64,000 nucleotides of DNA, taken from Bdellovibrionota bacterium. Its GTDB lineage: Bacteria; Bdellovibrionota_C; UBA2361; CAKMMH01. Shown one piece after another: positions 35,994 through 55,173 of this stretch. Position 1 is the first letter of the stretch, and each line of letters begins with the position of its first letter. A program made the position numbers and the translations under genes. Where the stretch lies: the NCBI GenBank assembly GCA_050952645.1, contig JBMNLI010000012.1, forward strand, positions 64,001 to 128,000, given 5' to 3'. A model generated the notes under the pieces. The model did no database searches. It was not told the origin of the DNA and was given only the letters and a program-made list of their open reading frames with translations.

Positions 35994-37826
35994 ATGACTA
36001 ATTCTTTACTAGAACCGAACAAAGATATACTAGATCGCATTTCCCATTGTGTAATTACAGATGTCGGAAAAAAACGAGAGACTAATCAAGATAGTTTTAT
36101 CGCTGTCTGTGGCGAGAATTTTAAATTATTCGTCGTTTGTGATGGCATGGGTGGAACCGACGGTGGGGAGATAGCAGCAGGAATAACGATCTCATATTTA
36201 CAATCTGAACTTTCAGGAAAAAAAATAAATGATATAGAAGATGTTAAAGAGGTGGTGTTTTTAGCTAATAAGCACGTTTTCGATTATGGCGCTGAACATA
36301 AAGAGGTTCAAGGACTAGGAACTACCATTACGACTTTACTAGTAATGGCTAAAGGGTCTTGGATATTAAATGTAGGAGATTCTAGAGTTTATAAAATTGT
36401 AGCTAACTCCATGGAGCAAATAACGCAAGACGATACGGTTTTACAAGAGTTAATTAAGTCTGGTGCAGTATCTAAGGAAAAAGCTAAAAGCCACCCTATC
36501 GCTAATATGCTAACTAAAACCATAGGGCAAGGAGATAGCCTAGAGATAGAAAGTAAGAGAATAGGTTTTTTAGATGATAGCGAACTTTATCTACTTTGCT
36601 CAGATGGGCTATACAATATGCTCTCAGATGAGGAAATCTTAAAAATAATTAAAGAGAGTAGCCCTCAAGAGGCCGTAAAAAAATTAGTAGAAGAAGCGAA
36701 TGATAATGGGGGTGCCGATAATATTACAGTAATGATAGTAGGAACGTTTGAAGAAGAGCTTAATAATACTACTAATGTTGATAATGATTTTTCTTCTAAA
36801 GACAAGCCAAAAATAAAAAAGCCAAAGGAAATAGTAACTAGAATAAATTATAAGAATTTAAGTCAAAAAGTTTTTCAAGCAAAGCTAAATGAAGATGGTA
36901 ATGCTGAGCAAAAAAACGATGATTATAAAACTTCTCAAAATAATAAAAATATAGATAAAGAGAATATAGATAAAGAAAAACCTCGTGAAATTACTCAAAA
37001 AGATTTATATTTATCGAATACGGATTCCAAAAAATTTATTCGACTTTTTTTATTATCGCTTTCAATCATTTTATTATTAATTTTTATGCCTGCTAAAAAT
37101 AATAAAAACGCACCTAAGGAAAAAGAAAAAAAATTAGTGGGCATTATCGGTGATATAAAAGTAGTAGAGAAAGAATATAAATTTAAAATGAAAGATATAG
37201 AAAAAAAGGTTGATACAAATACCACAGTTAATTATATAAAAGTTAATTATACAGAAGAAGAAAAAAAAGCTTACGACGATATTTTAAATTTACTTCAAGA
37301 AAAAAAAGAACTATCTAAAAGATTTTTACAAAACGAGAAGAATATATTACTAACTTCGATTAAAGAAGCTGAGAGAAAAATAGAAAAACTTGCGAAAAAA
37401 GAAAAAGAACTCAGAGGCTATAATGGGCAAAGTCTGATAGATATCGCTAGCAAGATATCGCTAAAAGATAAGAAAAAAGGAAGTAGTGAAAATAATAATG
37501 AAAATAATGGCGTAAAAAAAGCGTTAGATGATTTTTTAAATTTTTCTTATAGCATTTTAGATAAAAACTTATCGCAAAAAGATTACGACAGTTTAATGAG
37601 TGCTAAAATTAAAGCTTTAAATGAACGAGTAGAAAAATACGTATATAATAATTTAATAAAGCTTAAAAAAAGTGTAAAAGAAACACAAGAAAAAATTTTA
37701 CTTAGTCGCCTTAATTTATCTCTAGTAAATTTAAAGTTAGAATACGTTCAAGTGCTACAAAGTGGCGATGAAGAAGCTCTTGAAAATTTTAAGTTAAAAA
37801 TAGAAGCTCTAAGAGAAAGGCTTTAA
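35994..37826 (+). CDS. PP2C-family Ser/Thr phosphatase with TM helix and C-terminal coiled coil
   Basis: TDVG.KR..NQD, VCDGMGG, GTT, VGDSR.Y, CSDGL and GG.DNIT motifs. Confidence 0.92.
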   Translation: MTNSLLEPNKDILDRISHCVITDVGKKRETNQDSFIAVCGENFKLFVVCDGMGGTDGGEIAAGITISYLQSELSGKKINDIEDVKEVVFLANKHVFDYGAEHKEVQGLGTTITTLLVMAKGSWILNVGDSRVYKIVANSMEQITQDDTVLQELIKSGAVSKEKAKSHPIANMLTKTIGQGDSLEIESKRIGFLDDSELYLLCSDGLYNMLSDEEILKIIKESSPQEAVKKLVEEANDNGGADNITVMIVGTFEEELNNTTNVDNDFSSKDKPKIKKPKEIVTRINYKNLSQKVFQAKLNEDGNAEQKNDDYKTSQNNKNIDKENIDKEKPREITQKDLYLSNTDSKKFIRLFLLSLSIILLLIFMPAKNNKNAPKEKEKKLVGIIGDIKVVEKEYKFKMKDIEKKVDTNTTVNYIKVNYTEEEKKAYDDILNLLQEKKELSKRFLQNEKNILLTSIKEAERKIEKLAKKEKELRGYNGQSLIDIASKISLKDKKKGSSENNNENNGVKKALDDFLNFSYSILDKNLSQKDYDSLMSAKIKALNERVEKYVYNNLIKLKKSVKETQEKILLSRLNLSLVNLKLEYVQVLQSGDEEALENFKLKIEALRERL

Positions 37827-38015
37827 AAAAATTTTCCTTTTAAACTCTTGCTTTGAACTTTTTCAAAAGAAATGTTTTGTTAATTATTTCGACATACTTT
37901 ATATGTTATTTGATGTGATCTTTTAGTTTCGATTATGCTTTAGAGATTTTCTTTTATAAGTTCTCGTTCACATTATTTTTGTAATTTTTTTTGCAAAATT
38001 TTAAAAGGAATAATT

Positions 38016-39131
38016 ATGCAAATGTTTTATACAAAACTTACACTCTCGCTTATTGCGATGAGTTTAAAATCTGCGCACGTTAAAGAATATAGCGATTATC
38101 TTGCTAAAAATTTAATTTATGAAGATGATAATTTTTTAAGTTTAATTGAAGAAAATTTTCCAAATATTATAGAAAAATATAATGATAAATTAGTTATTGA
38201 TACGGTCGAAGAAAATATTGCAAAATGGGAAAAACAAGATATTAAATTTTTATTACTCGGCACTTTAGATTATCCTCAGGCGCTTAAAAATATTTATAAT
38301 CCTCCCTTAGTCTTGTTTTATAAAGGGACTTGGAAAAAAGATTACGATTATAATTTTTCAGTTGCCATAGTAGGCTCGAGAAAGGCTAGCGTTATGCAGA
38401 CTAAGTTTGTAAACCAGTTTGCTAGCGTGCTAAGTTTTTCTAATATATGTGTAGTAAGTGGGCTAGCGCAAGGTATAGATGCCGCTTCTCACATGGGCGC
38501 AATAAGTGGCGATGCAAATAAGTTTCCTACGATTGCAGTTCTAGGAAGTGGGGTAAATTATATATACCCTGCAGTTCATAAGTATTTAGCACACAAGATA
38601 ATAGACAAAGGTGGCATCTTGTTAAGCCATTTTTTGCCAGACACTGCCCCTTTTCCTTATAATTTTTTAGATAGAAATAGAGTTATCTCAGGGCTTTCAA
38701 GGATAGTAATAGTAGCGCAAGCCGCTGCTAGAAGTGGGGCACTTTCCACCGCTAGATATGCACTAGAGCAAGGAAGAGACCTCCTAGCAGTTTTAGGCCC
38801 AGTGTATGATGATAGTTTTGTAGGCTCTAATAATTTAATTACGCAGGGCGCTACGCCGATAGCGAGCGTTGAAGATTTTTTTAAATTATATCCAGAATAT
38901 TTACTAGATAAAAATTTAGATAAATTTGAAGATAATAAAATTATAAACTTTGAAGATGAGAAAGAAAAACAAGTTTATGAGTATATTAGAAAGCATAAAA
39001 AAGTTTCTAGAGAAGAACTGCACGAAAAATTTACTGATAGTAATTTATCGCTTACTGTTATAAATTTGTTAGCAAGAAATCTTATAGAGTCGCTCCCAGG
39101 GGATGAGTATTGTTTAGCACAAGGTTTGTAG
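38016..39131 (+). CDS. dprA: DNA processing protein DprA
   Basis: PP.VLFYKG, AIVGSR, VSGLAQGIDAASH, RNRVISGLS and SGAL.TA motifs. Confidence 0.95.
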   Translation: MQMFYTKLTLSLIAMSLKSAHVKEYSDYLAKNLIYEDDNFLSLIEENFPNIIEKYNDKLVIDTVEENIAKWEKQDIKFLLLGTLDYPQALKNIYNPPLVLFYKGTWKKDYDYNFSVAIVGSRKASVMQTKFVNQFASVLSFSNICVVSGLAQGIDAASHMGAISGDANKFPTIAVLGSGVNYIYPAVHKYLAHKIIDKGGILLSHFLPDTAPFPYNFLDRNRVISGLSRIVIVAQAAARSGALSTARYALEQGRDLLAVLGPVYDDSFVGSNNLITQGATPIASVEDFFKLYPEYLLDKNLDKFEDNKIINFEDEKEKQVYEYIRKHKKVSREELHEKFTDSNLSLTVINLLARNLIESLPGDEYCLAQGL

Positions 39132-39229
39132 AAAGAAAAGATTGTCGTTTTTTTATTTTTTCTATTTTCTTTATGTTTTATGTTTTATTTTTTTGAAATT
39201 TATTTTTATAATCTTCGATAACTTCTATT

Positions 39230-39805
39230 ATGAGTGTAATAATATTTTATCAAAATAGCGCATCGCTAAAAAATGAATATTTGCAAATAAGGGGCTTAGG
39301 AGGAAGTGTCGGGTTAGATAAGCGTGGAAGCATTGCTAGCGAAGATATCCTAGAGCATTATTTTCGAGTTGACGCTATAGGAAAAGAGTACGTTTTAAAA
39401 GTAGGAGAGCAAAACATACTTCTTCCTAAATATTTTAAAGCAAACATTAATAATATAGATTTTATTTTCTATACTACATCTCCTACTAGTGAGAGTTTAA
39501 CTTATACTTATTACGACTTAGATTCCTTTGATATTAAAAACAAGAAATTTATTACATTAAATTTAAGTTATAATTTAACGATGCTTTCAATAAAAATTTA
39601 TGAAGGGATAGAATATTATTTAGGCTCTTCAAAAGTTTCTTCTATTTGTATAGCAGAGAATTTTGTAGCTCCCTACCACTCGAAAATTACTTATGAAAAT
39701 GAGCAAATAAAAATTGTAGATGTAGCTGGAAGTTTAAAAAAAGAGGGAGAATATGCATATAGTTTAAATGATATTTCTCTAGTATTTGAAAAAGAGTTAA
39801 ATTAA
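39230..39805 (+). CDS. hypothetical protein with degenerate FHA-like C-terminal domain
   Basis: YYLGSS....I.I....VAPYHSKI......I.I.D matches the FHA layout but lacks the GR/SR residues. Confidence 0.45.
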   Translation: MSVIIFYQNSASLKNEYLQIRGLGGSVGLDKRGSIASEDILEHYFRVDAIGKEYVLKVGEQNILLPKYFKANINNIDFIFYTTSPTSESLTYTYYDLDSFDIKNKKFITLNLSYNLTMLSIKIYEGIEYYLGSSKVSSICIAENFVAPYHSKITYENEQIKIVDVAGSLKKEGEYAYSLNDISLVFEKELN

Positions 39806-39823
39806 GTTTTAGTTTTTTGTTTT

Positions 39824-41074
39824 TTAACCTTGCAATGCTTTATAGATGTTTTCTATCCAAACGACTGGCTTGTCGCATTTTGAAAACCAAGTGTCTGCAT
39901 TCGCATCTTTTGCTAACGTTTCTAAGTTTTGTTTTGATATATTAGAAAAAAGCGCTATTTTCAAGCTTGGCATAGTTTGCTTTAACATTTTACACAGATC
40001 ATTTCCGTTTATATTAGGCATATTAACGTCTGAAATTAGCAAGTCTATGTTTTCTTGAAATAGGTAGCTATGAATAGTTGATGGGTCTTGAGTAGTAAGA
40101 ACCTCAAAGCCTTCTTTCGTTAGTATATGGCTTAATATATTTAATATCATTTGATTATCATCTATACATAAAATTTTCGTTTTTTCTTGTTTGTTATTAT
40201 TTGAATTTTTATAAGTAGAGTTTTTATTTTCTTTTCCTAAAACTTCTTTGCAATCTTGCATAAAACTATCTGCCGTTTGGTATCTATTATTAGGTATTTT
40301 TTGTAGTGCCTTGTTTACGATATTTGCCACATCTTCTTTTATATTTAATGAGCTATCGAAAGGTGGCACTGGATTAGTTAAATGCATTAAGAGAGTTTGC
40401 ACTACCGTTTCTCCAAAGAAAGGAACTTTGCCAGCTAGAAGCTCGTATAGAACTATGCCTGCTGAATATATATCGATCCTCGAGTCGAGCTCCACCTCTC
40501 CTGCTGCTTGTTCTGGTGCCATATATTGAGGAGTTCCAAGGGCTGAGCCATCGATAGTTTTAGTATCGTTTAATTTTAAATCTTGCTTCATTTTAGCTAT
40601 GCCAAAATCTAGCACTTTTAATTCCGTGTAGTCATCAAGGGTATTATTAAAGTTTACTATAATGTTATCAGATTTAATATCTCTATGAACGATACCGTCG
40701 CTATGGGCGCAAGATAGCACGTCTAAAATATCTATTAAAATTCTTAGTGCTAAATGGTAATCTAAGGGGCCACATTTTTTTACGCATTTGCTAAGCGTGA
40801 TTCCTCTACAAAAGTCTGTAGTCATGTAGTAGCGACCATCTTTAGTTTTTCCGAAATCTCTAAGTTTAGCGGTATTTTTATGAGAAAATTTTTCTAGCAC
40901 TCTCGCTTCTTCTATAAAACGCTCTACAATCTGAGAGTTGTTCGATACTTCTTTTGATAGCAGTTTTAGGGCGTATTGTAGTTTTAAGTCCTCGTGTTCT
41001 ACAAGGTAGACATCTCCCGTTGCCCCAGAGCCTAATAGTCTAATAATGTTATATTTTTCAGCGATTTTTTCCAT
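39824..41074 (-). CDS. Hanks-type Ser/Thr kinase with C-terminal receiver domain
   Basis: LGSGATG.V, ALK, HRDIKSDN, DFG, GTPQYMAPE; C-terminal ILCIDD...LLISDVNMP...G REC domain. Confidence 0.95.
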   Translation of the reverse strand: MEKIAEKYNIIRLLGSGATGDVYLVEHEDLKLQYALKLLSKEVSNNSQIVERFIEEARVLEKFSHKNTAKLRDFGKTKDGRYYMTTDFCRGITLSKCVKKCGPLDYHLALRILIDILDVLSCAHSDGIVHRDIKSDNIIVNFNNTLDDYTELKVLDFGIAKMKQDLKLNDTKTIDGSALGTPQYMAPEQAAGEVELDSRIDIYSAGIVLYELLAGKVPFFGETVVQTLLMHLTNPVPPFDSSLNIKEDVANIVNKALQKIPNNRYQTADSFMQDCKEVLGKENKNSTYKNSNNNKQEKTKILCIDDNQMILNILSHILTKEGFEVLTTQDPSTIHSYLFQENIDLLISDVNMPNINGNDLCKMLKQTMPSLKIALFSNISKQNLETLAKDANADTWFSKCDKPVVWIENIYKALQG

Positions 41075-41107
41075 TTATTCGTTATGTTTTCGTAATGCTA
41101 AGGTATA

Positions 41108-41135
41108 TAGTCGGCAAAATAGAAAAAATTATTTA
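41108..41135 (-). promoter_or_regulatory. sigma28-like promoter of the kinase gene
   Basis: Minus strand TAAA-N16-GCCGACTA. Confidence 0.5.
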
Positions 41136-41239
41136 TAAAGTTTTTATAAAGATTTATAAAAGATTTTTAAATTTATCTATCTTTTTTGAAAGTTATAGCA
41201 TCAAAGCTATTAGGAAGTTTTTAAAAGGGTTAGTTTCGT

Positions 41240-41602
41240 ATGCAAGAAGAAAAAAAAGAAGAAATAATAAAAGAAAAAAGCAGAAAAGATAATCTAGACA
41301 ATTGTTCAATTCAAGATAAGGTTGGTACTTTGCAATTTTTTTACGATGTTAATCTAGTCGTATCTGTTGAGCTTGGTAGAATAGAGTGTACACTCGATAA
41401 GTTAATAAGGCTTAAAAAGGGCTCTATTATCGAACTCGATAAGCTTCCTGAAGAACCTTTAGATATAAGGGTAAATAATAAACTGCTAGCGCAAGGAGAA
41501 GCCGTAGTAGTAAATGATAAATTTGGAGTTCGCGTAACTCAGATAGTGTCCCCAGATGGCGAGCTAGATGCGCTAGCAGCTGTAAGCAATTCTGCTAAAT
41601 AA
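41240..41602 (+). CDS. fliN: FliN/SctQ-type SPOA-domain C-ring protein
   Basis: DV.L.VSVELGR, GSIIELDK...EPLDI.VN.KL.A.GEAVVVNDKFGVRVT motifs. Confidence 0.9.
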   Translation: MQEEKKEEIIKEKSRKDNLDNCSIQDKVGTLQFFYDVNLVVSVELGRIECTLDKLIRLKKGSIIELDKLPEEPLDIRVNNKLLAQGEAVVVNDKFGVRVTQIVSPDGELDALAAVSNSAK

Positions 41603-41790
41603 ATTCATAAAATAAAATTTCTAAATAAAAAACGTAAAATAAAAAATCTAAAATAAATGATTCAATATAAATAACGCAAAATAAATTACAAACTGCTAAA
41701 GAATATAAATCCTGTTTTTTAAAACAGCATTATAATTTTAGCCTATAAAAAATTCTATATTGTCGGATTTTCATTTTCTTGATAAATTTG

Positions 41791-41818
41791 TAAACAGATA
41801 GGCGTATTGTGCCGTATA
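41791..41818 (+). promoter_or_regulatory. sigma28-like promoter
   Basis: TAAA-N16-GCCGTATA just upstream of the AAGGA SD of 41844. Confidence 0.4.
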
Positions 41819-41843
41819 ACTTTAAATTTAAAGGATTAAAAAG

Positions 41844-44131
41844 ATGTTAGAAATTTTAAAAAAGAAAAAATTATTTTTAAGTTTAACATTTAGTTTAGCA
41901 TTTCTTTTATTGCACTCAAATGGAAATGCGCTGATTATAGATGATTTTACAGATAAAGATGTTTCGGGTAGCGACGCTTCGCTTCAAACAAACATTGAGG
42001 GAGATGGCGATTTTAGTTGGAATAGTGTAAAGCTCTCTAATGTTGTAGGTGGTTGTAGAAAGGCTGAAATGAAAAGGGATGGTAAGGGGACTTTCGAATC
42101 GGGGCGTTATTCACATAACCAAGGCGCCACTAAAACGGCTCGCTCTACTATCACTTGGGGTGAGTGCGAAGATGGAATCACTATGCCACTAGTCGATTTA
42201 ACTATAGATGGTGGTGAGTATATAATCGTAGAAACTGAAGGTAGTGAACATAATGGGGACATATTTTTAGAGTTGCATGATGATGTTGGGTACAATGGTA
42301 GAGTTAATTGTAGTAAGGTGACAGATGTTCATGAGTATCGATGTGAGTTTTCAAAATTTTTAGGTGTAAACTTAAAAAAGATTGAAAAAATAATTTTAGA
42401 GATAGATGGAAGGCCTGGGTTTGACTTAGATGTAACTAAAGTCTTAACTGGCAATGAAGCTAATACCGTTTGTGGTGTTATTCCATCTGCTTTAAATGGC
42501 TATGGTGCAAAAGATGAGTGTGAAATATGCCCAGGGGAGACCGACTATGGATTAGGAAAAGATGAGTGTGGTTATTGCCCTAATGATACGCTTCCAAAAA
42601 ATTATAGTTATGGAGATGGAAAAATTTGTAAATATAGTTGCGATAAAAATCAAGTTTGTGGTTGGTGCCCAACGAGTACTAAGCATATAAAAGATGGGGG
42701 GTATACTTGTAGGCAGTGTGATGATGGCATAGACAACGATGGAGATGGAAAGATAGACTGTAAAGACCCACAATGCTTAAAAGGTGTAGGTGGAACCTGT
42801 GATAGAAATTACGATAGTGAAGCTCCGCAATGTAGCAATTTAAAAGATGATGATGGTGATGGATTAGTAGATGATGACGACCCTGCTTGTATGGATGAAA
42901 ATGGAGATTACGATCTAAATTTAGATAGCGAAGCGGATGATCCTGCGTGTAGCGATGGGATAGATAATGATGGGGATAAATTGAAAGACGATGAAGACCC
43001 AGGGTGTTACGCTAAAGACCCACTCTCTGGAAAGTACGTTTATAAGCCTTATAAAAGAAGCGAAAAAGGACCTGACACTGAGTGTTCAGACGGTATAGAT
43101 AATGATGGAGATGGTTATATAGATAGCAAAGACCCTGATTGTTGGCACCCAGATTCAACTAAGCTAGGTGGCACTAAAGACTACTCTAGCGTTGCTCCAT
43201 TTTACGATTGGAATCCTTGGCATGACTCAGAGGCTGGAGATAGAGTTTATGAGTGCTCTGACGGTATAGATAACGACCTTGATGGAACTTATCGATGCAG
43301 AAGATCCTGGTTGTCTAGTAAATGAGGAATGGGATCCAAGAGAGGGAAAGCGAGATAAACTCTCCTAATGGTAAGCCTGAATGTAATGATGGAATAGATA
43401 ATGATGGCGATGGGCTTATAGACTACCCTGCAGACCCTGGATGTATAAACAAGGATGATGATTCTGAGGGGGACGATTTAAAGAAACCTGAATGTTCAGA
43501 TAGAATAGATAACGATGGAGATGGAAAGATAGATAAGGAAGACCCTGCTTGTTGGACTTATGATGGCAATGGAAATCCTGTAAACTACGACCCTACTATC
43601 GATGATGAGTCTGGTTGTGCTGGAGTGTCTAGCTTTGGTAACCTTGCTGTAGATAATGAAAGATTAGCGGCTGTTGGGCAAAATGCAGCGCTATATTTAA
43701 AAAGATTTCATAGAAACTCTAGCAAGGAATTTAAGAGAACTACACAATCGGCAAATAGAGTAGGAGAAAAGATAGGAAAAGAAATTAATAAAGTTATGAC
43801 TAACTTAAAAAATTATTCAGTTTCTTGTAAGGATGGTAGCCAAGTTATGGGGACATCTTGTCGTAATAACAATGATGCTGAGTTAAATAAGTTTTCTAAG
43901 CGAGTAAGAAAATTAAATCAGCTAGTTAGAAGAGCACAAAGAAGAGGGTTGTTCTTTAGAAAAAATTATGAGAAGAAAGCTATATCTGCTAAAAAGCAAA
44001 AAAGAGCAAGGTATAAAGAGGTAAAGGATTTAATGCTAAATAATAGACGTGCTGGAACTAGAGGAAAAGTATTTAAAGAGATAAATCGTAAGGTTTCAAT
44101 AGTTAAAGGGTTAGCTATTTGTAACGATTAG
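41844..44131 (+). CDS. secreted Cys/Asp-rich Ca-binding repeat protein (CxDGxDNDGDGxxDxxDPxC repeats); one gene split by two apparent +1 insertions near 43286 and 43338
   Basis: Signal peptide; seven repeats across ORFs 41844..43325 and 43322..44131; the bridging frame reads DGLIDAEDPGCLVNEEWDP. Confidence 0.75.
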
Positions 44132-44197
44132 TCTTTTTGCTTTTAGTTTTTTACATTTAGTTTTTTATTTTCTAAATGGAACGCTTACGAAAGTTAT

Positions 44198-45789: not shown

Positions 45790-45998
45790 AACGTTTAGCT
45801 AAAAATAATTGAAACTTATTTTTTAGCTTCGCATCGTAATAGTTGTAAAGTTTGTATTTGTATTTTTATTTTTTAGCTTAAACTTATGCATCTTAAGTAG
45901 TAATCGATGCTCGATTTTTAAATTTAAAAATTTTTAAGCTAAATTTTTTTTAAAATAATTGTTTATATATAATTAATTATATTATGGAGATAATCAAA

Positions 45999-46166
45999 AT
46001 GTTAAGAACTTTTACAAAAAAACAAAAAGGTGCTTCAATGGTAGAGTACGCTTTAGTAGTAGCTTTAATCGCTATAGCTGCTGTTGTAGCAATTAGAGGT
46101 TTGGGCAATCAAATTAAAACTAATTTTGAAGATGTAGAATCTACATTAGAAAGCATAGACCAATAG
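45999..46166 (+). CDS. flp: Flp family type IVb/IVc pilin
   Basis: KG-ASMVEYALVVALIA Flp motif; ATG 45999 after GGAG. Confidence 0.92.
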   Translation: MLRTFTKKQKGASMVEYALVVALIAIAAVVAIRGLGNQIKTNFEDVESTLESIDQ

Positions 46167-46209
46167 TATATATTTAACAAGCACTATAAGTATATAAGTA
46201 TATATTTTT

Positions 46210-47163
46210 ATGAAACCACTTAATAATATGCATCAAAATGATAGCAATGTTGGGAGACTAATCTTGATAATAGCATTAGTAGTAATGCTATTATTAGGTG
46301 GTTTCTTATTATTATTTTTTAGTGCTAAAAATAAAGTAGAAAAGCAGTCGTCTTTTGAGGTGACGCAAAAGACTAAAGGAGCTAATGGCGAGTTAGAAAA
46401 TGAGCTTATTCGCTTTGAAAACGTAGATGGTAAAAATGTTGAAAAGATATACCAAGTTTTAATGGCTGCAAGAGATATAAAAAGCGGTGAAAGGTTAAGC
46501 CCTGCTATGTTTAGAAAAGAACCGAGACCATCGAGCGTATTACTAGGAGGAGAGTTTAAAGATTTCTCAGAGCTTCAAGGGCTTTACGCTAAAGAGGATA
46601 TTAGTGCTAGTGATACTATCGATGCAAGCAAAGTAACTAATAAAAAACCCGTAAATACTATTACGGCAAATATCCCTGAGGGGTATAGAGCAGTTACTAT
46701 AAATGTGGACGTGACTAGTAGCGTTGAGGGCTGGGCACGTGCTGGTGCATTCGTTGACGTAGTTTGGAATTCAGTTTTACAAGGGAAACCGTCTGCAACG
46801 GTTATAGTTCAAAATGCAAAAATTTTATCCGCAGAAAGAGTAGTAGAAGGAAATACTCAAGAGGGACAAGTGTCGCAAGCGCAAGTCCCTAGCACAGTTA
46901 CGCTTTTAGTCCTAGCAGATGATGCTACTAAAATTCATTTAGCTGCGACTACTGGAAAATTAAGTTTACAATTAAGGGGCGATGATACCGATGAAAAAAG
47001 AGATGCCAATAGGTCCTCTCTTACTATAGACGATTTATTAGGAGGAGGAAAAACGGCTCGAGGGAAAAAAAGATACGATGCCATAGTAAAAATAAGAGGA
47101 AGCAATGGCAAAATGGAAAAGTGGGGCTTAAAAGATGGCGTTCTTGTCCCAGTAGAAGAATAA
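46210..47163 (+). CDS. cpaB: Flp pilus assembly protein CpaB/RcpC
   Basis: SAF domain (AARDI..GE.L), IPEGYRAVTI.V....V.G....G..VDV, VTLLV and L.LQLR motifs. Confidence 0.9.
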   Translation: MKPLNNMHQNDSNVGRLILIIALVVMLLLGGFLLLFFSAKNKVEKQSSFEVTQKTKGANGELENELIRFENVDGKNVEKIYQVLMAARDIKSGERLSPAMFRKEPRPSSVLLGGEFKDFSELQGLYAKEDISASDTIDASKVTNKKPVNTITANIPEGYRAVTINVDVTSSVEGWARAGAFVDVVWNSVLQGKPSATVIVQNAKILSAERVVEGNTQEGQVSQAQVPSTVTLLVLADDATKIHLAATTGKLSLQLRGDDTDEKRDANRSSLTIDDLLGGGKTARGKKRYDAIVKIRGSNGKMEKWGLKDGVLVPVEE

Positions 47164-47230
47164 GGTTTAAGACGGCAATACGAATCTGGTTTTAGCTTTG
47201 GTTTTAGCAAGGTATAATGGGCGAGGTATA

Positions 47231-48679
47231 ATGAGAAAGAATGATGATATAGATATAACAAGTTTATTTTCGACTAAGTTAAATAGAGATAGGGAAACTA
47301 AAGAAACTACCACTGAAGAAACCTCACTTACCACCGTTGATAATTCCACAAGAAGTTTAGCTAATACTAATAATGAAAATAAAGATAAAGCTAATAAAGA
47401 AGACCCCTTTAAAAAAGAACTTTCCTCGACAGGAAATAACGTCTTAAAAGAAGCAAGAAGTGAGCTTGGGGAGCTCATGAATAAATCTCAAGAGGCTCTA
47501 AAGCAAGTAAACGAAGAAACTATAATAAAAGCGGTAGAAAAGGTAATATTTAAAAATAGTGTTTCAATTCCAGACTTAGAAAAAGCTACAATTATTATCC
47601 ATTTACAAAAAGATTTATTAGGTTGGGGAGTTTTGCAACCGCTTATAGACAATCCTGAGGTTACGGATATTCACGTATACGATTATTCCACCGTAGTTTT
47701 ACAACGAGGTAAGGTAAGTGAAAGAACGCCTTATCACTGGCCATCGAAGCAAGTTTACGTTGCTTTTATCGATAGACTACTTTTAAGATTAGGAAAATCG
47801 CTATCTAACCAGCAACATACTATCGACGCTTCGCTTCCAAATGGAATAAGAATATGTGCTATTCACGAGAGTGTTTGTGGTTCTAGGGGGCCTCTTTTAA
47901 GTATTCGTGTGCCTAGAATCAGCAACGTATCATTAGAAAGTATAATAACTTACCAAATGGCTCCACCGTTAATCGTTAGGTATTTAGCAGCGCTAGTAAA
48001 ATGCGGAATATGCACTTTTATGATTGCTGGTGAAACTGGAACCGGTAAAACTACGCTTATGAAATGTCTTGCAACGCAATTTGGTAGCGATGAAGCGATA
48101 GTGGCAGTAGAAGATACTCCCGAGCTTAATTTACAGCACGAATATTTTAGATCATTAGTTTCACGTCCTGCTAATACTGAAGGGAAAGGTGAGGTTACGC
48201 TTCAAGAGCATATTAAAACTACGCTTCGCATGACGCCAAATAGAGTGCTTTTAGGAGAGATGAGAACTCCTTACGCAGCCGAGGCCTTTTTAGAGGGAGT
48301 TCAAACTGGGCACGTTGGAATGAGCACTATTCACGCTCGTAATGCTAGAGAAACTCTTACTAGGCTTGAAGGGCTTTTAGGTCGTGCTCAACATTCGGTT
48401 TCAATAGAAATTTTAAGGCAACAAATAGCACTCGCAGTCGATGTCGTAGTGTGGCTATTTAGAGAAAAGGAAACTGGAAAACCGAGAGTTGGGGAGATTA
48501 TAGAGGTTGGGCATTGTGTTGAGGGTGTAATTCAAACTCGCCCGATGTTTTCTATGCTAAAAACTGGAAAAGACCCTCTATGGAGAGTCGACTCTTGGGC
48601 TAGCTTTTTCGATGAGGAACTTGCAGAATACGGAATATTTTTAGGAGATGTGCCTCCTGAAATTAGTTTAAAGGATTAG
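47231..48679 (+). CDS. cpaF: CpaF/TadA pilus assembly ATPase
   Basis: LGWGVLQPL, GETGTGKTT, EDTPEL, LRMTP.R.LLGEMR and TGH.GMSTIHA motifs; ATG 47231 after GAGG. Confidence 0.92.
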   Translation: MRKNDDIDITSLFSTKLNRDRETKETTTEETSLTTVDNSTRSLANTNNENKDKANKEDPFKKELSSTGNNVLKEARSELGELMNKSQEALKQVNEETIIKAVEKVIFKNSVSIPDLEKATIIIHLQKDLLGWGVLQPLIDNPEVTDIHVYDYSTVVLQRGKVSERTPYHWPSKQVYVAFIDRLLLRLGKSLSNQQHTIDASLPNGIRICAIHESVCGSRGPLLSIRVPRISNVSLESIITYQMAPPLIVRYLAALVKCGICTFMIAGETGTGKTTLMKCLATQFGSDEAIVAVEDTPELNLQHEYFRSLVSRPANTEGKGEVTLQEHIKTTLRMTPNRVLLGEMRTPYAAEAFLEGVQTGHVGMSTIHARNARETLTRLEGLLGRAQHSVSIEILRQQIALAVDVVVWLFREKETGKPRVGEIIEVGHCVEGVIQTRPMFSMLKTGKDPLWRVDSWASFFDEELAEYGIFLGDVPPEISLKD

Positions 48680-48794
48680 AAAAATTAGTTTTGAAAATCG
48701 TTAAATTACAAAACGCCGTTAGAGGTATTTATGGGGTGCGTTTTTGGGTTTGTCTAGTTTAATTTGACAATCCGCTAAATTAAAGGTTTAAAAA

Positions 48795-49739
48795 ATGTCT
48801 ATCGGAATTATATTAGGTATTTTATTTATAGTTATATCCTTAGCTTTGCTAGTAGCCTTGCTACATTTAACTAAGAAAAATCAGATTAAAGATAATAAGT
48901 TAAGGAATTTTCAAACTTATAATCAAAAGACTAAGAGTAATGATGATTTTCAAGATAATGATGACTACACGATAGTCGAAAGGAAAGCTAATGGTGATTA
49001 CACTCTAAAACAAAAAATGATATATGCTAATTGGCATTTTCCTCCTATTCTTTTTAGCGCATTAAGATGGCTAGTCGCTTTTTTATGTTTTCTTTTAGCT
49101 AGTACTTATTTCAAAGTATTTTTATCGCTAGTATTTGGTTTTTTAGGTTATGCTTTCGTTAATAGTTTTTTAGATAGAGCTATAAATAAAAGATTTGAAG
49201 CTTTCGATAAAGATTATCCAACATTTTTACAGTCCGTTGTAAGTCTATTAAAATCTGGTATGAATATTCTTTCCGCTATTGAATCTGCCTCAGATGGGCT
49301 AGAACCTTCTTCTTTGTTAAGGCAAGAGGTAGGTATAATGCTAGAAAGATTAAGAATGGGAACTGGGGAAGAAAAAGCGATAGGGAATTTTGGTGCCTCT
49401 ATTAACCATCCTGAAATAGAGCTTTTTATCCAAGCCATAATTTTAGGAAAAAGTTTAGGTGGTGCGTTATCTAATACGCTTGATAGGCTTTCAGAACAAG
49501 TAAGAAAAAGGCAATACTTTAGAAATTCTGCGCAAGCTGCAATAGTGCAACAAAAAGGTTCTCTTTGGGTAATATTAATAATTTTAACGAGTATTTTAGT
49601 AATTATAGGAAAACAGGCACCAGATCTTTTTGAGGCGGCATTAGCTTCTAATCATGGGCGAATGGTGTTAGAGGTAGCTATTGGAGCTATATTAGGTGGT
49701 GTTTATTGGATAAAGCAGATAGTAAAGATTAAGGTTTAG
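48795..49739 (+). CDS. tadB: TadB (T2SSF-domain) platform protein
   Basis: LKSGMN, GG.L...LDRLSEQVRKR; follows cpaF. Confidence 0.8.
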   Translation: MSIGIILGILFIVISLALLVALLHLTKKNQIKDNKLRNFQTYNQKTKSNDDFQDNDDYTIVERKANGDYTLKQKMIYANWHFPPILFSALRWLVAFLCFLLASTYFKVFLSLVFGFLGYAFVNSFLDRAINKRFEAFDKDYPTFLQSVVSLLKSGMNILSAIESASDGLEPSSLLRQEVGIMLERLRMGTGEEKAIGNFGASINHPEIELFIQAIILGKSLGGALSNTLDRLSEQVRKRQYFRNSAQAAIVQQKGSLWVILIILTSILVIIGKQAPDLFEAALASNHGRMVLEVAIGAILGGVYWIKQIVKIKV

Positions 49740-49743
49740 TTTT

Positions 49744-50610
49744 ATGGAATTTTTATATATAAGTGCAGCTATAGTTTCAGTTTTAATAGTTATATTATTA
49801 ATAGCTATAAAAATTTCTAGCAAAAAAAATAGCAAATTAGGTAATTTTAGAAACTCTCAAGGAGACACTAAAGATAAAGTAAAAAAAGTATCTGATAGAG
49901 AAAAGAAGGCGAAAGACAAAGAAGATTTAGAAACTCTTTTTGCAAGAGCTGGAATGTTTTCTCAAGATGAGAGAGCTAAGTTTAATATATTTAGAAAAAT
50001 TACGCCGATAGTATGTTTAGCGATAGGTATTATATTAGGATTAAAATTTGGTGGCATAGTTGCTCTACTTTGCATAATAGCTGCTATTTATTTAGGGCTT
50101 AAAATTCCAGATATAAGATTAAATAAAAAAATAAAAGATAGAAATGAGGATATATTATATTATCTTCCTTTAGTTATAGAGCAGTTAGTTATCGGTGTAA
50201 GTAGTGCGTTAGATGTGGGACCGTGTATAAGCTACGTGGTAGATATGGCAGAAAAGAGGGGAACTCACAACCCAGTTACTTTACTTTTAAAGCAAGTGCA
50301 AACTTACGTTCGTTTTGGAGCATCTTTAGATAATGCTCTTTCTGATATAGGAAGAGAGTCTGGTCATAATGAGCTTAAAAATAGCTTTCTTCAACTTGCG
50401 CAAGTAACGAAACACGGTGGTGAAATTACTAAGCAACTTCAAGATTTAGGCACAACGGTTGCAAAGCAAAGAGAGGTTATAATCGATGGAAGAATAAAGA
50501 CCCTAGAGTTAAAGGCCACTGGCCCTGTGTTTTTAGTATTTGCAGGCAATATGACCATTTTGCTCGGCTTCATAATACTTGGGCTTTTAAAAAGTATGAA
50601 AGAGCTTTAG
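49744..50610 (+). CDS. tadC: TadC (T2SSF-domain) platform protein
   Basis: P...L.KKIK.R...I...LP, L.Q..K.GG.I...L pattern; follows tadB. Confidence 0.8.
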   Translation: MEFLYISAAIVSVLIVILLIAIKISSKKNSKLGNFRNSQGDTKDKVKKVSDREKKAKDKEDLETLFARAGMFSQDERAKFNIFRKITPIVCLAIGIILGLKFGGIVALLCIIAAIYLGLKIPDIRLNKKIKDRNEDILYYLPLVIEQLVIGVSSALDVGPCISYVVDMAEKRGTHNPVTLLLKQVQTYVRFGASLDNALSDIGRESGHNELKNSFLQLAQVTKHGGEITKQLQDLGTTVAKQREVIIDGRIKTLELKATGPVFLVFAGNMTILLGFIILGLLKSMKEL

Positions 50611-50648
50611 CATAAAAGAAAATTGGAGCTAGCTTTAGCTTTGCGGAG

Positions 50649-50723
50649 ATTTTCTTTTAGGCTTCGTCGAGGTGAGTGATACTAATTCTTAAGGTTTAAA
50701 ACCTACTTTAAAACGTGAAGAGC
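50649..50723 (+). repeat. dispersed palindromic repeat, copy B
   Basis: GGCTTCGTCGAGGTGAGTGATACTAATT...ACCTACTTTAAAACGTGAAGAGC. Confidence 0.85.
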
Positions 50724-50734
50724 TAAAAAATACC

Positions 50735-50762
50735 TAAATAAATCAATTTATTTGGCCGATAT
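50735..50762 (+). promoter_or_regulatory. sigma28 (FliA/SigD-type) promoter
   Basis: TAAA-N16-GCCGATAT, a consensus match ending 8 bp before the ATG (implying a very short or absent leader). Confidence 0.65.
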
Positions 50763-50770
50763 CTACATAT

Positions 50771-52855
50771 ATGAAAAAATCATTAATCCAAGGACAAGAT
50801 TTTATGTTAGCACTTTTTGTGCTTTCTATTATGGCTATGCTTGTAATTCCTCTTCCTACAAGCCTGCTCGATTTTTTATTAGTTATAAATATTTCATTTT
50901 CATTACTACTTTTACTCGCTGGGCTTTACATGCCTAATGCCCTAGCACTACTTTCTTTTCCATCTCTTCTTCTTTTAACTACGCTTTTTAGGCTTGGGCT
51001 TAACGTGGCATCGACTAGACTTATCTTAAGCCAAGGAGATGCGGGACACGTTATTGAAACGTTTGGAACGTTTTTAATTAAAGGCGAAATTACAGTAGGT
51101 GTTATAATATTTTTAATTATAACGATAGTAAATTTTATCGTAATTGCTAAAGGTGCTAGCCGTGTATCTGAGGTAGCTGCAAGGTTCTCTTTAGAGTCTC
51201 TCCCTGGAAAACAGATGGCGATAGACTCAGACCTTCGCTCTGGAGTGATTACTACTAATCAAGCTAGAGAAAAGAGGGAAGACCTAAGAAAAGAGTCTCA
51301 ACTTTACGGTGCTATGGATGGTGCGATGAAGTTTATTCAAGGCGATGTTATAGCAGGTTTCTTTATTACGCTAACGAATATTTTTGGTGGTATGTTTATA
51401 GGCTTAAAACAGGGGATGCCTTTTAATGAAGCTCTGCAAACTTATACAATGCTAACCGTAGGAGATGGTTTAGTAAGCCAAATTCCAGCACTTTTAATTT
51501 CTATTTGTGCAGGTATCGTCGTTACTAGAGTAAGTTCGGGCGAGAATACTACGTTAGGAAAGGAGCTTGGGAGCCAACTTTTTGCAAGCCCTGGTATTAT
51601 GATTTTTACGGGGTTTGTGTTATTTCTTTTTGCAGCTTTGCCAGGGCTTCCAGCTTTTCAGTTTATATTAGTAGGTTTAGTATTTGTTTATATAGGTTTT
51701 CATATAAGACGTAAAAAAAGAATAGAATCTCAAAAAGCAGAGTTTTTACCAGTATCGGTTATGCATGCTAATAAAGAATTACTAGAAAGCGATAATGCTG
51801 AAAATTTAGATTGTTTTGAGATATGGATAGATAGAGATTTTGGAGATTATGTTGATTTAAATTCTCTTTTAATTTTACAAAAATGTAATGATTATAAAGA
51901 TAATTTTTTAAAAATGACTGGATTTAAATTTCCTACATTTAAGTTCGTTATAAAAAATGAGATCGCAAAAAATTCATTTAAGATATATAAATCTAATACA
52001 TTAACGGTAGAATCTGTTTTTGCAGATGATATGGTTTATATAAATGTTAATAAATCACAACTTCCAATTTTAGGGCTTAAGGAGTTAAAGGAAGAAAGAC
52101 ATCCAATTTATGGAAGTAAGCTTTATGGCGTTAAAAAAGATGCTTTTTCGAGTTTACTTTGCAAAGAGGCGGATATTATTAGTTATGATAAGATAGATTG
52201 GATATTATTAAATTTAGTAAATTTTTGTATAAATAATCCGATAGAATTTTTTAGTATTTCAGATATAACGATAATGCTTAAAGAGTTAGAAAAAATATAT
52301 CCTGCAACTGTAAAAGATTTATTTTCAATTCCTCAAGTAAGTAGTGCAAAAATTTTTGAAGTTTACAAAGAACTTATTAGGCAAGGTGTGTTTTATATAT
52401 CACATAGGGAAAAATTAGAGGGTATTATTTCATATTTTAATGGCTATAATATTTCTAGCGATAGTGATTTCGATGTTTTTAGTATTGTATCATCGATTAG
52501 AAAGGCTAAGAAACTACACGTTGTATCGAACTCTATATTTAGAGAAAAACGAATAAAACTTTGTAGCATATCTGATGAGTTGCAAGAAGTGTTCGAGGAG
52601 ATGATACCTCAAGTTTATGAGGGGAATATAAATTTAGATGCAAAAGATTTTTCTACTATAAAGAATAATCTTTTATCATTACAAAGAAACTATATAGAAA
52701 GGGGAATAGTTAGTTTTTCTATAATTAGCTCTAGAGATTTAATTCCCGTAATATACAATGTGCTTAGAATTTTTGAGTTAAAAATTAATGTAATAGATTT
52801 TGATGAGCTTACGCCAGATTTAAAAATAGAACATATAGGAGTTTGGAGAAAATAA
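50771..52855 (+). CDS. FHIPEP-family type III export gate protein (FlhA/SctV), SctV-like signatures, divergent cytoplasmic domain
   Basis: FPSLLLLTTLFRLGLNVASTRLIL, EVAARF.L..LPGKQMAID.DL, ESQLYGAMDGAMKF and GDGLVSQIPALLIS motifs. Confidence 0.9.
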   Translation: MKKSLIQGQDFMLALFVLSIMAMLVIPLPTSLLDFLLVINISFSLLLLLAGLYMPNALALLSFPSLLLLTTLFRLGLNVASTRLILSQGDAGHVIETFGTFLIKGEITVGVIIFLIITIVNFIVIAKGASRVSEVAARFSLESLPGKQMAIDSDLRSGVITTNQAREKREDLRKESQLYGAMDGAMKFIQGDVIAGFFITLTNIFGGMFIGLKQGMPFNEALQTYTMLTVGDGLVSQIPALLISICAGIVVTRVSSGENTTLGKELGSQLFASPGIMIFTGFVLFLFAALPGLPAFQFILVGLVFVYIGFHIRRKKRIESQKAEFLPVSVMHANKELLESDNAENLDCFEIWIDRDFGDYVDLNSLLILQKCNDYKDNFLKMTGFKFPTFKFVIKNEIAKNSFKIYKSNTLTVESVFADDMVYINVNKSQLPILGLKELKEERHPIYGSKLYGVKKDAFSSLLCKEADIISYDKIDWILLNLVNFCINNPIEFFSISDITIMLKELEKIYPATVKDLFSIPQVSSAKIFEVYKELIRQGVFYISHREKLEGIISYFNGYNISSDSDFDVFSIVSSIRKAKKLHVVSNSIFREKRIKLCSISDELQEVFEEMIPQVYEGNINLDAKDFSTIKNNLLSLQRNYIERGIVSFSIISSRDLIPVIYNVLRIFELKINVIDFDELTPDLKIEHIGVWRK

Positions 52856-52857
52856 CA

Positions 52858-55173
52858 ATGGATGATAATAAAAGTTTGTCACTTTTAGTTTCAATTAATG
52901 ATTTATTTAAAATAGAGTCGAGCATTGCCGTGTCGAACAACTCAGAGGCTTTCAAAGCTATTGAGATTAAAACTGGAAGAAGCGTTATTGTGTCGATTTT
53001 AAAAAGAAAATTCGATGCTTATAAAGATGTTGAAGATGCAAAAGAGTTTTTAGAAAGATTAAGAAAAATAAAATCTTTAGGGAGCTACGTATCAGATTTA
53101 ATAAATTTTGGAGTTGATAAAGATGGTGTTGGGTATTCAATAAGTAAGATTACATCTACGAATTCTATTTTATCGGGGAATATAAGCTTAGGGGAAGCTA
53201 GCAGAAGATTTGAAGCTATGCTAAGTCTTATAAGAAAATTGCACAAAGAGGGTATAATTCTTGGGGATATCTCGAATGATACTTTTTATATAAGTAGAGA
53301 TGGCAATATCGGCGTTCTTGCCCTTAATGGTTCTTATCCGACTAAGAATGTTTTTTATATGACTGAAAAAAGCTATTTATTACCTAGCGAAGAAGAGCCT
53401 ATTTCAAAGGCGAGTGATATATATAGGTTTGGTATTTTATGTTATAAATTATTTTTAAATGATAGCACTGCTTATCCGTTTGATGATAATAAAAATTATA
53501 TTCCAGTTTCAATGACTAAATCTGTGCCTAGGTTTATAGATATAGCGCTTAAAACATGTCTTTCTGAAACTCCTAAAGAAAGATTTTCAGATGTAGAAGA
53601 GCTTTATAATTACATAAAGGTTGAAAAAGAAAAGTTTTCTAATATTGACGAGGAGTCTTTTAATTTATCTAATGATGAGTTTAAAAAATTAAAAGTGTTA
53701 AATGAGTTAACGCTAAGAGAAGAAAAGGATGATAAGCATAGTAAGCACGCTTTAGCATATGTAATAGGGGGAGTTTTCGTATTTTTAATTTTAATATTAT
53801 TTATGTTTTTGCATTCGAGTAAAACTAGTAATAAAAATGTCGTTATTTCTATGAGTAGTAGTCAAACTAGTAAAGATAATTTAGAAAAAAGGGAAGCACA
53901 TTTAAAAAGAATTTATGATAGTGAAGACCCCGTAACGTACGTTGCAATAGTTAATATGGCGGCTAAAGCACCTACGCCACAACAAAGAGAGTTAGTAGAA
54001 AAGTATATATTAAAAAGATTTGTTAATTATCGGTTTGATAAAATGAGTGTGGTGTTAAGGGAGTTTTTTAATGGCATTACTCAAAATATAGTTCCAGACT
54101 TTTATGAAAAATTATTATTATCATTAGATAAGAATTATCCAATAGAAAAAAGGATAACATTGTTTAAAGAGCTAGTTAGAACTAATAGGAGTTTAATAGT
54201 TAATTTTGCTTTTGCATTATCACTAGATACGAATGATACGAAAGGGTATAGGGAAATTTTTACTTATATTTTAGATGATCAATATAAAGAAGATATATCT
54301 CGAAGAACGTTTGATGCTTTAGTAATTGCTGAGTATACGGCATGGGAAAAATATAAGGATATATTAAAAGAAAAATTAAAAACGCTCTCGGATGAAGATT
54401 TAATATGGGAGCTTCAAATTTTTGTTAAAAGAAACGATATGCATTTAGGGGAGCTTATCGATTTAATTACTAAGAGAGAGCTTTTAGATAATATTCAAAC
54501 GAAATTTTTATCTCTAGTAAATGAGCTTCGTCCACCAAGGGAGATTAAAAACATTCTATTAAGTGCAGGGACTGCGAAAATTACGAGGAAAGATATAGGA
54601 ACAGTTTCAAATTGGTTAAATGTTAATAAGGTAAAAGTTTTTTATGTAATGTTGTTAGCGCTTAAAAATGATGATTTATTAAAGAGAGAAATTTTTGATG
54701 TGTTATCTCTTATAAATTTAGAGAGCGAGGCAACGAATAATTATATAAGATATGCTAAACAAAAGGAGTGGGACAATAGGGGAGATTTAGCAACTCTTAT
54801 ACCTTATATGCAAAATTACGATGATTTTTCAGATAGAGAGATTTTAGACGTTATAAAATTTAGCATAAGAAATTTAAGTACTTCTAGTAAGCAACAAGTG
54901 CTTACGCTTCTAATAAAAAATTTAGATGATAATTATAAAAAGCTAATAATGGAGAATTTTTATAATGAACTTGGCATAGGAACGCTTGTAAATTATTTAT
55001 CGTATAGTGATAAGACTATAAAAAAGATGGCTATAAAGGGGTTAAAAGAAGCTAATATAAATGATGTGATAATTTCTAACTTAATAATAAATAAATATGA
55101 GGACGAAGACGATGAGGAGTTAAGGGAGTTATATAGGGAAAGTTTTTGGTTTATAAAAAAGCGTGGGATTTAA
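52858..55173 (+). CDS. membrane-anchored pseudokinase with large C-terminal helical (HEAT/ARM-like) domain
   Basis: Kinase-fold remnants LH..GIILGDIS, SDIY.FG.L.Y, CL...P.ERF, but no HRD, DFG or Gly-loop; central TM; ATG just after the upstream stop. Confidence 0.7.
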   Translation: MDDNKSLSLLVSINDLFKIESSIAVSNNSEAFKAIEIKTGRSVIVSILKRKFDAYKDVEDAKEFLERLRKIKSLGSYVSDLINFGVDKDGVGYSISKITSTNSILSGNISLGEASRRFEAMLSLIRKLHKEGIILGDISNDTFYISRDGNIGVLALNGSYPTKNVFYMTEKSYLLPSEEEPISKASDIYRFGILCYKLFLNDSTAYPFDDNKNYIPVSMTKSVPRFIDIALKTCLSETPKERFSDVEELYNYIKVEKEKFSNIDEESFNLSNDEFKKLKVLNELTLREEKDDKHSKHALAYVIGGVFVFLILILFMFLHSSKTSNKNVVISMSSSQTSKDNLEKREAHLKRIYDSEDPVTYVAIVNMAAKAPTPQQRELVEKYILKRFVNYRFDKMSVVLREFFNGITQNIVPDFYEKLLLSLDKNYPIEKRITLFKELVRTNRSLIVNFAFALSLDTNDTKGYREIFTYILDDQYKEDISRRTFDALVIAEYTAWEKYKDILKEKLKTLSDEDLIWELQIFVKRNDMHLGELIDLITKRELLDNIQTKFLSLVNELRPPREIKNILLSAGTAKITRKDIGTVSNWLNVNKVKVFYVMLLALKNDDLLKREIFDVLSLINLESEATNNYIRYAKQKEWDNRGDLATLIPYMQNYDDFSDREILDVIKFSIRNLSTSSKQQVLTLLIKNLDDNYKKLIMENFYNELGIGTLVNYLSYSDKTIKKMAIKGLKEANINDVIISNLIINKYEDEDDEELRELYRESFWFIKKRGI

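Follow-up and report, generated by a model that had tools for sequence, protein, structure and literature searches.

A stretch of 64,000 nucleotides from a Bdellovibrionota genome (the window) carries Tad pilus genes that run into a gene for a type III export gate, raising the question of whether pilus and gate belong to one machine. A preliminary description of positions 35994-55173 had proposed a physically linked Tad/T3SS-like hybrid under phospho-regulation, and the genes that it listed were all found where it had placed them. Open reading frames and profile searches confirmed the core, cpaE-flp-cpaB-cpaF-tadB-tadC-sctV-pseudokinase (44545-55173, each gene on the + strand). This conserved core opens with a cpaE/TadZ-like gene (44545-45789), whose product combines a receiver-like N-terminus with a ParA/MinD-type domain and, for most of the phylum's 124 genomes, has a profile match at orthologue level (E<1e-100). 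The following genes encode a Flp pilin of 60 residues (45984-46166; PF04964, E 2.8e-12), CpaB/RcpC (46210-47163; TIGR03177, 129.8 bits for a cut-off of 71), the CpaF/TadA pilus ATPase (47198-48679), with intact Walker A and B motifs and no FHA domain, and the platform proteins TadB (48795-49739) and TadC (49744-50610), both recognized by PF00482. The window thus holds all of the Tad/Flp pilus parts Flp, CpaB, CpaF, TadB, and TadC. The core ends with a full-length, non-flagellar SctV-type export gate (50771-52855), in which the motifs of the membrane domain are conserved, and a membrane pseudokinase (52843-55173), whose open reading frame shares 13 bases with the end of sctV. The cluster contains no secretin, prepilin peptidase, needle, or other export gene, as the preliminary description had stated. 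The core genes are under purifying selection, with dN/dS values of 0.07-0.24 for seven of them (dS near saturation). Scans for promoters (58 versus 61.7) and terminators (11 versus 7.9) revealed no excess over shuffled sequences.

The assignment of the gate was based on profiles and trees. The window SctV matched PF00771 with 539 bits over positions 1-656 and scored higher with the hrcV model than with the FlhA model (536 versus 489), both FHIPEP models giving scores under their cut-offs; for the flagellar model TIGR01398, the score was 488.9 and the cut-off 772.1. A separate canonical flhA, scoring 837.7 bits, is located elsewhere in the genome (C12:190 kb), beside flhB, flhG, and fliA, and the window gate groups apart from it. 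In a quick tree, limited to 16 operon copies and leaving out the degenerate SctV of genomes G073, G074, and G085, flagellar FlhA was split from operon SctV with an SH-aLRT support of 99, and operon SctV fell outside the canonical SctV clade (support 98). The SctR tree agreed with the non-flagellar split (100/99); both trees were built without myxobacterial or chlamydial references. Joining flagellar FlhA and operon SctV was rejected by the AU test (p 0.0003; G067 left out). In G071, the operon SctV scored slightly higher with the FlhA model (513.7) than with hrcV (506.4). Of 71 genomes, 8 lacked a flagellar-score FliP but had two SctR matches. The sequence trees show the window gate to be of non-flagellar ancestry. 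That the gene is instead a displaced or decaying flagellar flhA beside an ordinary tad locus, as a FliN gene in the cluster and the two sub-threshold FHIPEP scores might suggest, is hardly credible, a flagellar identity being refuted by the separate flhA, the AU test, and the synteny conserved across the class, and the dN/dS of the window sctV being about 0.10.

The protein encoded after sctV comprises a kinase fold (residues 15-270), a transmembrane helix (304-322), and a helical-repeat domain (340-776), which is tentatively HEAT-like; the pLDDT of the structure model was 86.6. The β3 Lys was present in 2/51 pseudokinase sequences and the DFG Asp was not among the residues listed, whereas the β3 Lys, αC Glu, and DFG Asp motifs were all intact in 29/29 control kinases. 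This loss of motifs shows the membrane kinase to be, by prediction, catalytically dead. YukC/EssB of type VIIb secretion is described as a membrane pseudokinase that likewise belongs to a secretion cluster and has partners with FHA domains (PMC9600267). The likeness is one of description: the secretion system is a different one, and the outer domain is here made of helical repeats.

The order tad-sctV-pseudokinase is conserved across the class, far beyond chance. In relatives, sctV followed the tad genes in 52/53 loci with at least 7 kb of downstream sequence. In a set of 40 loci, tadC preceded sctV in 39 (the remaining contig was too short) and the pseudokinase followed it in 39. Upstream from cpaE, FHA and kinase genes were found in 61/64 loci with at least 3.5 kb of sequence. 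In other orders, a PP2C-FHA-kinase triplet preceded cpaE in 20/20 loci, sctV was downstream of the tad genes in 15/20, and a double-FHA gene followed the pseudokinase in 12/12 informative loci. Six genomes (G065, G067, G071, G078, G082, and G004, the last belonging to the window's own order) carry a same-strand run that goes on into FHA proteins, sctJ, sctQ, and sctRSTU. The proposal of a Tad/T3SS hybrid is thus strengthened, since in these relatives a single run includes the complete export apparatus.

Some of the parts missing from the window were located elsewhere in the genome. The export tail (FHA proteins, sctJ, sctQ, and sctRSTU) lies on contig C15 and completes a non-flagellar SctRSTUV apparatus. 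SctT was recognized by Pfam in one of the four operon copies scanned and otherwise assigned by position. The SctJ ring and SctQ C-ring proteins are present, with NCBIfam scores below cut-off, and sctJ is followed by a gene for a 75-residue, possibly FliG-N-like, protein. The place expected for the double-FHA gene falls off the start of C15; a candidate at C13:19033 was rejected (43 bits versus about 400 for true copies). A motif scan had suggested that the flagellar ATPase was the only one. This was overturned by a family search, which found a second SctN in an unlinked SctL-SctN pair (C3:31826-33708). Replacement of SctN by CpaF is therefore unsupported in this genome. It has this one pair and two gates, a second non-flagellar gate occurring in the same genomes, whereas other orders carry two SctL-SctN pairs; neither neighbourhood nor branch length matched the two SctN clades to the two gates. 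No dedicated Tad or T3SS secretin was detected in 46 genomes, although a pore of highly divergent sequence might escape detection. Secretin matches numbered two in 41 of these genomes, one in four, and three in one, and those of the present genome are of the GspD and PilQ types. In the same genomes, PF13629 was found in 0/46 (the control was positive in Caulobacter) and the secretin search did not reveal the short KilC secretin. The needle SctF (TIGR02105) was found in 0/31 genomes and in 3/3 control plasmids. A single A24 peptidase (frames of 275-323 residues) and no dedicated TadV/CpaA prepilin peptidase were found in 5/5 genomes.

Because the tad genes run into a gate, a dead kinase, and, in relatives, the rest of a type III apparatus, they are likely to specify one contact-triggered export device. 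We consider it somewhat better than an even chance (about 0.55) that the tad-sctV-pseudokinase block forms the central part of an operon found throughout the lineage and encoding one inner-membrane machine, in which a pilus and a needle-less gate would perform contact-dependent delivery. By analogy with Myxococcus Kil/T3SS*, its best reading is that of a phosphorylation-gated pilus and needle-less export machine. The membrane kinase of the triplet would phosphorylate threonines and the PP2C phosphatase would reset the switch; three FHA proteins would read the phospho-mark and nucleate the assembly in the manner of the Pseudomonas T6SS cascade that has been cited for Kil (PMC8460266). The pseudokinase could act as a membrane-spanning scaffold next to SctV, in place of the missing SctD, as the YukC/EssB hub suggests. 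SctJ, the FliG-N-like linker, SctQ, and SctRSTU/V would form the gate, driven by the proton motive force and helped by the separately encoded SctN/SctL where present. CpaF and TadBC would polymerize Flp, after its processing by the one peptidase of PilD size, and thereby extend a pilus that may borrow a PilQ or GspD secretin for its passage across the outer membrane and stand in for the needle. Proteins exported to the periplasm at the pilus base would then probably be delivered to another cell upon contact.

Kil and T3SS* of Myxococcus xanthus resemble this system in having a Tad core with several FHA proteins and a type III export apparatus with SctJ and SctQ, described as lacking needle and secretin (PMC8460266, PMC12075869, PMC10433427). 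Two non-flagellar T3SS variants per genome recall the long and short loci of Myxo (PMC3459982). In contrast to Kil/T3SS*, both machines are here encoded in one operon rather than in separate clusters; a PP2C-FHA-kinase triplet and a membrane pseudokinase are additional components, and a flagellum is usually retained by the cells. Unlike Kil, whose ATPase is fused to an N-terminal FHA domain (PMC8460266), the window CpaF is unfused, and neither a KilC-like secretin nor a dedicated prepilin peptidase was found. There is also no SctD with a periplasmic ring and no recognized SctI, and SctU is devoid of its C-terminal domain. With neither an FHA-fused ATPase nor KilC, the window system is, on predicted domain content, not a member of Kil. 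Relative to canonical diderm Tad/Flp systems (type IVc, Caulobacter cpa type), the operon has Flp, CpaB, CpaE, CpaF, TadB, and TadC but no RcpA/CpaC, TadV, or minor pilins, and type III genes come next; its CpaF shares only about 32% identity with CpaF of proteobacteria. As in canonical injectisomes (Ysc, Inv-Mxi-Spa, Hrp, Desulfovibrio), there are homologues of SctV, R, S, T, U, J, Q, O, L, and N that fall with the non-flagellar sequences in the trees; unlike them, SctC and SctF were not detected and the FliG-N-like protein is kept.

In Myxococcus, Kil and T3SS* are reported to co-localize, and three of four pilus tips to need T3SS* for killing (PMC12075869). By analogy, the pilus-gate device possibly serves attack on other cells. 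A coupled machine devoted instead to adhesion, surface-protein display, or host symbiosis appears quite unlikely: the lineage is uncultured, the domain content is not that of a Kil orthologue, and the CpaF tree places the window ATPase as sister to the clade of the lineage's second Tad system, but the relatives are placed in Bdellovibrionota and the only pairing of Tad with a needle-less T3SS studied in the cited accounts is predatory (PMC12428579, PMC12075869). The two readings share their architecture and differ in purpose only.

The operon is not preserved intact everywhere. The export tail was detached from sctV in 34/35 informative loci of the window's order, and 4/20 loci of other orders were broken after cpaE or flp, indicating that the tad-sct linkage is not obligatory. 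The operon has several break points, which differ between families, and sigma-factor genes flank the tail, as might be expected if a pilus for adhesion and an exporter to the periplasm were physically separate machines sharing an operon solely for co-regulation by the kinase cascade and the adjacent sigma factors. We regard this explanation as unlikely, since, where the operon is split in the window's order, sctV remains with tadC and is parted from its own partners sctRSTU (39/40 loci), which co-regulation alone does not predict.

There is a small but real chance that the gate was co-opted as a non-exporting scaffold, or as a proton-coupled platform for signalling, by which the Tad motor is positioned or switched and through which little or no protein passes. 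In one family (G073, G074, and G077), SctV is nearly unrecognizable (23-72 bits versus 295-639) and CpaF stays conserved. SctU is truncated, the NPTH/C-terminal domain being absent from 7/7 copies; SctO is lost from the export tail of G004 and G016; and no SctN was detected in G023 and G034. These features fit a gate with a reduced export function, and three FHA proteins and a pseudokinase would suit a signalling hub. Against a non-exporting gate, none of SctR, S, T, U, V, J, and Q has been lost, 35/35 aligned orthologues share the membrane motifs of SctV without change, and most genomes keep SctL-SctN pairs.

We found no description of the operon in the literature, although a survey of Kil loci (PMC13200544, Table S3) may list these loci. 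How a T3SS without needle and secretin delivers proteins, and whether it forms a complex with the Kil pilus, are presented as open questions (PMC12075869, PMC12428579), and the co-occurrence of Kil and T3SS* is reported as restricted to Cystobacterinae (PMC12428579). An operon with both machines confines the parts to a closed set of about 22 genes, among which the pseudokinase and the FHA proteins are candidate couplers, making the question of coupling testable. It brings in two T3SS lineages from outside the myxobacteria that branch early and lack a secretin, which bears on the transition from flagellum to injectisome, and suggests a lifestyle dependent on contact for an uncultured class. We advance only tentatively, as possible though doubtful, that this is an ancient, class-wide single machine, a Tad pilus without secretin having taken the place of the needle in an early-branching type III exporter with a FliG remnant, a pseudokinase scaffold, a threonine-phosphorylation switch, and sometimes no SctN. 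It would then represent a surviving link between the flagellum and the injectisome, and a version of the Kil/T3SS* coupling that is genetically fixed.

The left half of the region (35994-44131), which the preliminary description had counted as part of the machine, consists mostly of bystanders. In the 40 relatives' loci, its kinase-REC, PP2C, FliN, dprA, and repeat genes lay beside the operon only in one relative of the same genus. The PP2C phosphatase with a transmembrane segment (35994-37826, + strand) groups outside the operon PP2C set, whose positional orthologue is on contig C17, and dprA (38016-39131, +) is a bystander found at 1/40 loci. A 191-residue all-β protein (39230-39805, +) belongs to a narrow family of five members, itself included, seen beside the operon only within the genus. 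It has no Pfam or NCBIfam match, so that its earlier label of FHA-like stands only as a weak resemblance (hhalign probability 15.8; Foldseek matches to FHA of probability 1.0 with E 0.06-0.14), and it probably has a degenerate C-terminal FHA fold. The kinase-REC fusion (39824-41074, - strand), with intact active-type motifs, scored 158 bits with the operon-kinase profile versus 567 for the C17 kinase. The stand-alone FliN (41240-41602, +), labelled FliN/SctQ before, is of the flagellar type (TIGR02480, 93.6 for a cut-off of 84.05) and failed the SctQ model (55 versus 100.8); its best matches were about 1 kb from flagellar fliP in 3/5 relatives. Profile scores, grouping, and narrow family led us to reject the kinase-REC, PP2C, FliN, and 191-residue proteins as operon members. 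The last bystander, an acidic double-disulfide repeat surface protein (41844-44131, +; NF033662), is frameshifted into two open reading frames and is a single frame of 769 residues in G001. Phospho-regulation by the window genes named for it is not upheld, but it holds for the lineage through the conserved PP2C-FHA-kinase triplet, which this genome carries at C17:7110-10702.

Re-examination of the window bore out all gene positions given in the preliminary description. The genes of the block at 44545-55173 (cpaE-flp-cpaB-cpaF-tadB-tadC-sctV-pseudokinase) are all in one orientation with intergenic gaps of at most 194 bases, and sctV overlaps the kinase-like gene by 13 bases. The genome that contains it is 1.95 Mb in 17 contigs (completeness 93.75%), and the phylum comprises 124 genomes, every one within the same class. 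Synteny was assessed in 40 of 60 relatives' loci, picked for long contigs and genus spread. tadC was found ahead of sctV in 39 of the 40 loci and the pseudokinase gene after sctV, likewise, in 39, indicating that the proposed adjacency is conserved. In a second set of 80 loci, located through cpaE in genomes partly overlapping the first set, sctV was present downstream from the tad genes in 52 of the 53 loci that were informative, whereas cpaE was preceded by FHA and kinase genes in 61 of 64. Among the 20 genomes examined for synteny out of 33 from other orders, all harbored PP2C-FHA-kinase-cpaE, followed by tad-sctV in 15, by a contig end in one, and by a break after cpaE or flp in four. Since the relatives are kin and not independent, these counts show deep inheritance rather than many origins. 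No description of a tad-sctV-pseudokinase operon was found in titles and the beginnings of abstracts, a coverage that excludes subscription journals; a survey of Kil systems (PMC13200544) may include these genomes.

The window's genome contains three FHIPEP genes and three FliP/SctR genes. The window copy is not its only flhA candidate, since the FHIPEP copy at C12:190 kb adjoins flhB, flhG, and fliA and passes the FlhA cut-off (837.7). The window gate scored 536 with the hrcV model versus 489 with FlhA, both under the cut-off, and one operon orthologue gave the reverse order, with FlhA marginally above hrcV. In a quick SctV tree of 37 rows, the nine flagellar FlhA were separated from all other rows (SH-aLRT 99), and a clade made up of the 16 operon copies (99) branched apart from the six canonical non-flagellar SctV (98). 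Grouping of the operon SctV with the FlhA of the lineage was rejected by the AU test (p 0.0003), and the SctR tree displayed the same flagellar/non-flagellar split (100/99). As judged from these sequence comparisons, the window gate is not the flagellar one. Of 61 genomes, 50 gave at least three FHIPEP matches, and at least that number was obtained for FliP in 57 of 71 genomes; a FliP of flagellar score was missing from eight genomes, which nevertheless kept two SctR. Residues R83, D192, and D232 of the SctV membrane domain, which we take to be the counterparts of the FlhA proton-coupling residues, were invariant across 35 orthologues. Comparison of sctV with the same-genus relative gave a dN/dS of ~0.10, with dS near saturation.

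A second non-flagellar gate, conserved class-wide, forms its own clade. Its locus combines a sigma factor, sctJ, a sctQ-like gene, a TPR lipoprotein, and a SctV of only 608 aa, and the genes sctRST and a split sctU are at other sites; parts are located at L018:7920-13884 (C17:278-284 kb), L022:7027-12236 (C10:227-232 kb), and C17:20174-23062.

The preliminary description placed the core in a larger linked cluster of phospho-signaling, FHA, and FliN genes. The core is kept in relatives; the genes to its left (35994-44131), encoding PP2C, DprA, a 191-aa protein, kinase-REC, FliN, and an acidic disulfide-repeat protein, adjoin the operon, among the 40 loci, only in the same-genus relative, except for two loci in which the upstream neighbor is, by chance, a flagellar operon that includes fliN. 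Profile searches with the conserved genes preceding cpaE identified orthologues of the PP2C-FHA-kinase triplet at C17:7110-10702, where the kinase scored 567 bits with the operon-kinase profile versus 158 for the window kinase-REC. The window PP2C fell outside the operon PP2C set, in a comparison in which the C17 copy had a very long branch and was assigned mainly by position. The window FliN matches the flagellar FliN of relatives, and the 191-aa protein belongs to a narrow family with a weak FHA-fold signal. The genes for kinase-REC, PP2C, FliN, and the 191-aa protein were rejected as operon members, and dprA and the repeat gene are likewise read as bystanders. The repeat gene (41844-44131) is frameshifted near 43285-43345 relative to an intact 769-aa copy in genome G001, and is either a pseudogene or an assembly error.

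Downstream from the pseudokinase, all 12 informative loci from other orders contained a double-FHA gene, as opposed to 1 of 35 loci from the window's order. Nine other-order downstream regions were read. Five continue with a zinc-ribbon-FHA gene, sctJ, a gene for a 75-aa protein, sctQ, and sctRSTU; in most of these, sctQ is preceded by a SctO-like gene, and a TPR protein gene comes after. The other four end at about sctQ. Genome G004, from the window's order, retains the entire 22-gene run, and in the window's genome this tail is at C15:115-7533. SctU lacks the C-terminal domain. The 75-aa protein scored 0.86 as FliG-N-like, a resemblance that may serve as a lead, and its homologues with an organism name carry names of the kind seen in records of this lineage. 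Many genomes of the order, the window's not among them, encode a thioredoxin-like lipoprotein after the pseudokinase (L051:7820-8338 and similar).

Two secretin matches per genome were detected in 41 of 46 genomes, those of the window's genome being GspD and PilQ. The RcpA-type N-domain was detected in none of the 46 genomes and the needle model in none of 31, the positive control working in both cases. A single prepilin peptidase, of PilD size, was present in five of five genomes. The window's genome has one SctL-SctN pair, at C3. In other orders, SctN formed two clades, each branching, with weak support, apart from both FliI and canonical SctN, and one sctL-sctN pair is followed by genes for two conserved membrane-anchored coiled-coil proteins with no convincing Pfam match (L178:8642-12781). 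SctN was not detectable in G023 and G034; these genomes (97% and 94% complete) have two export gates, yet FliI is also undetectable.

In the predicted model of the pseudokinase, a kinase fold is combined with a single transmembrane helix and a long domain of helical repeats. The beta3 lysine is kept in 2 of 51 sequences, and the residues listed at the other two catalytic positions include neither the alphaC glutamate nor the DFG aspartate; all three were intact in 29 of 29 control kinases. One full-length cluster held the operon CpaF at 50% clustering. Its sister clade, devoid of FHA fusions, contains the second Tad ATPase of the window's genome, encoded by a secretin-less Tad locus with TadE/TadG-like genes (C9:47-56 kb), and CpaF-type ATPases with a fused N-terminal membrane domain (P0141, P0144, and P0147).

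The favored reading, with a probability of roughly 0.55, is a single coupled machine, gated by phosphorylation, whose pilus would take the place of the needle. The strongest hint is that sctV remains with tadC when the rest of the export apparatus moves away. Counting against this reading are the truncated SctU, a family whose SctV is degenerate, and some genomes that have lost SctO or SctN. By analogy with the Kil pilus and needle-less type III system of Myxococcus, the operon might be used against prey. The family with extremely diverged SctV (L154:14036-16093, L155:4676-6697, and L157:13337-15127) still keeps CpaF and the pseudokinase, and offers a natural test of the purpose of the gate.

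Elsewhere in the window, ispH (lytB; 6571-7754) is apparently split into two ORFs, and the protein encoded at 32961-34202, upstream from a SPOR gene, is recognizable only as an N-terminal ArgRS domain.
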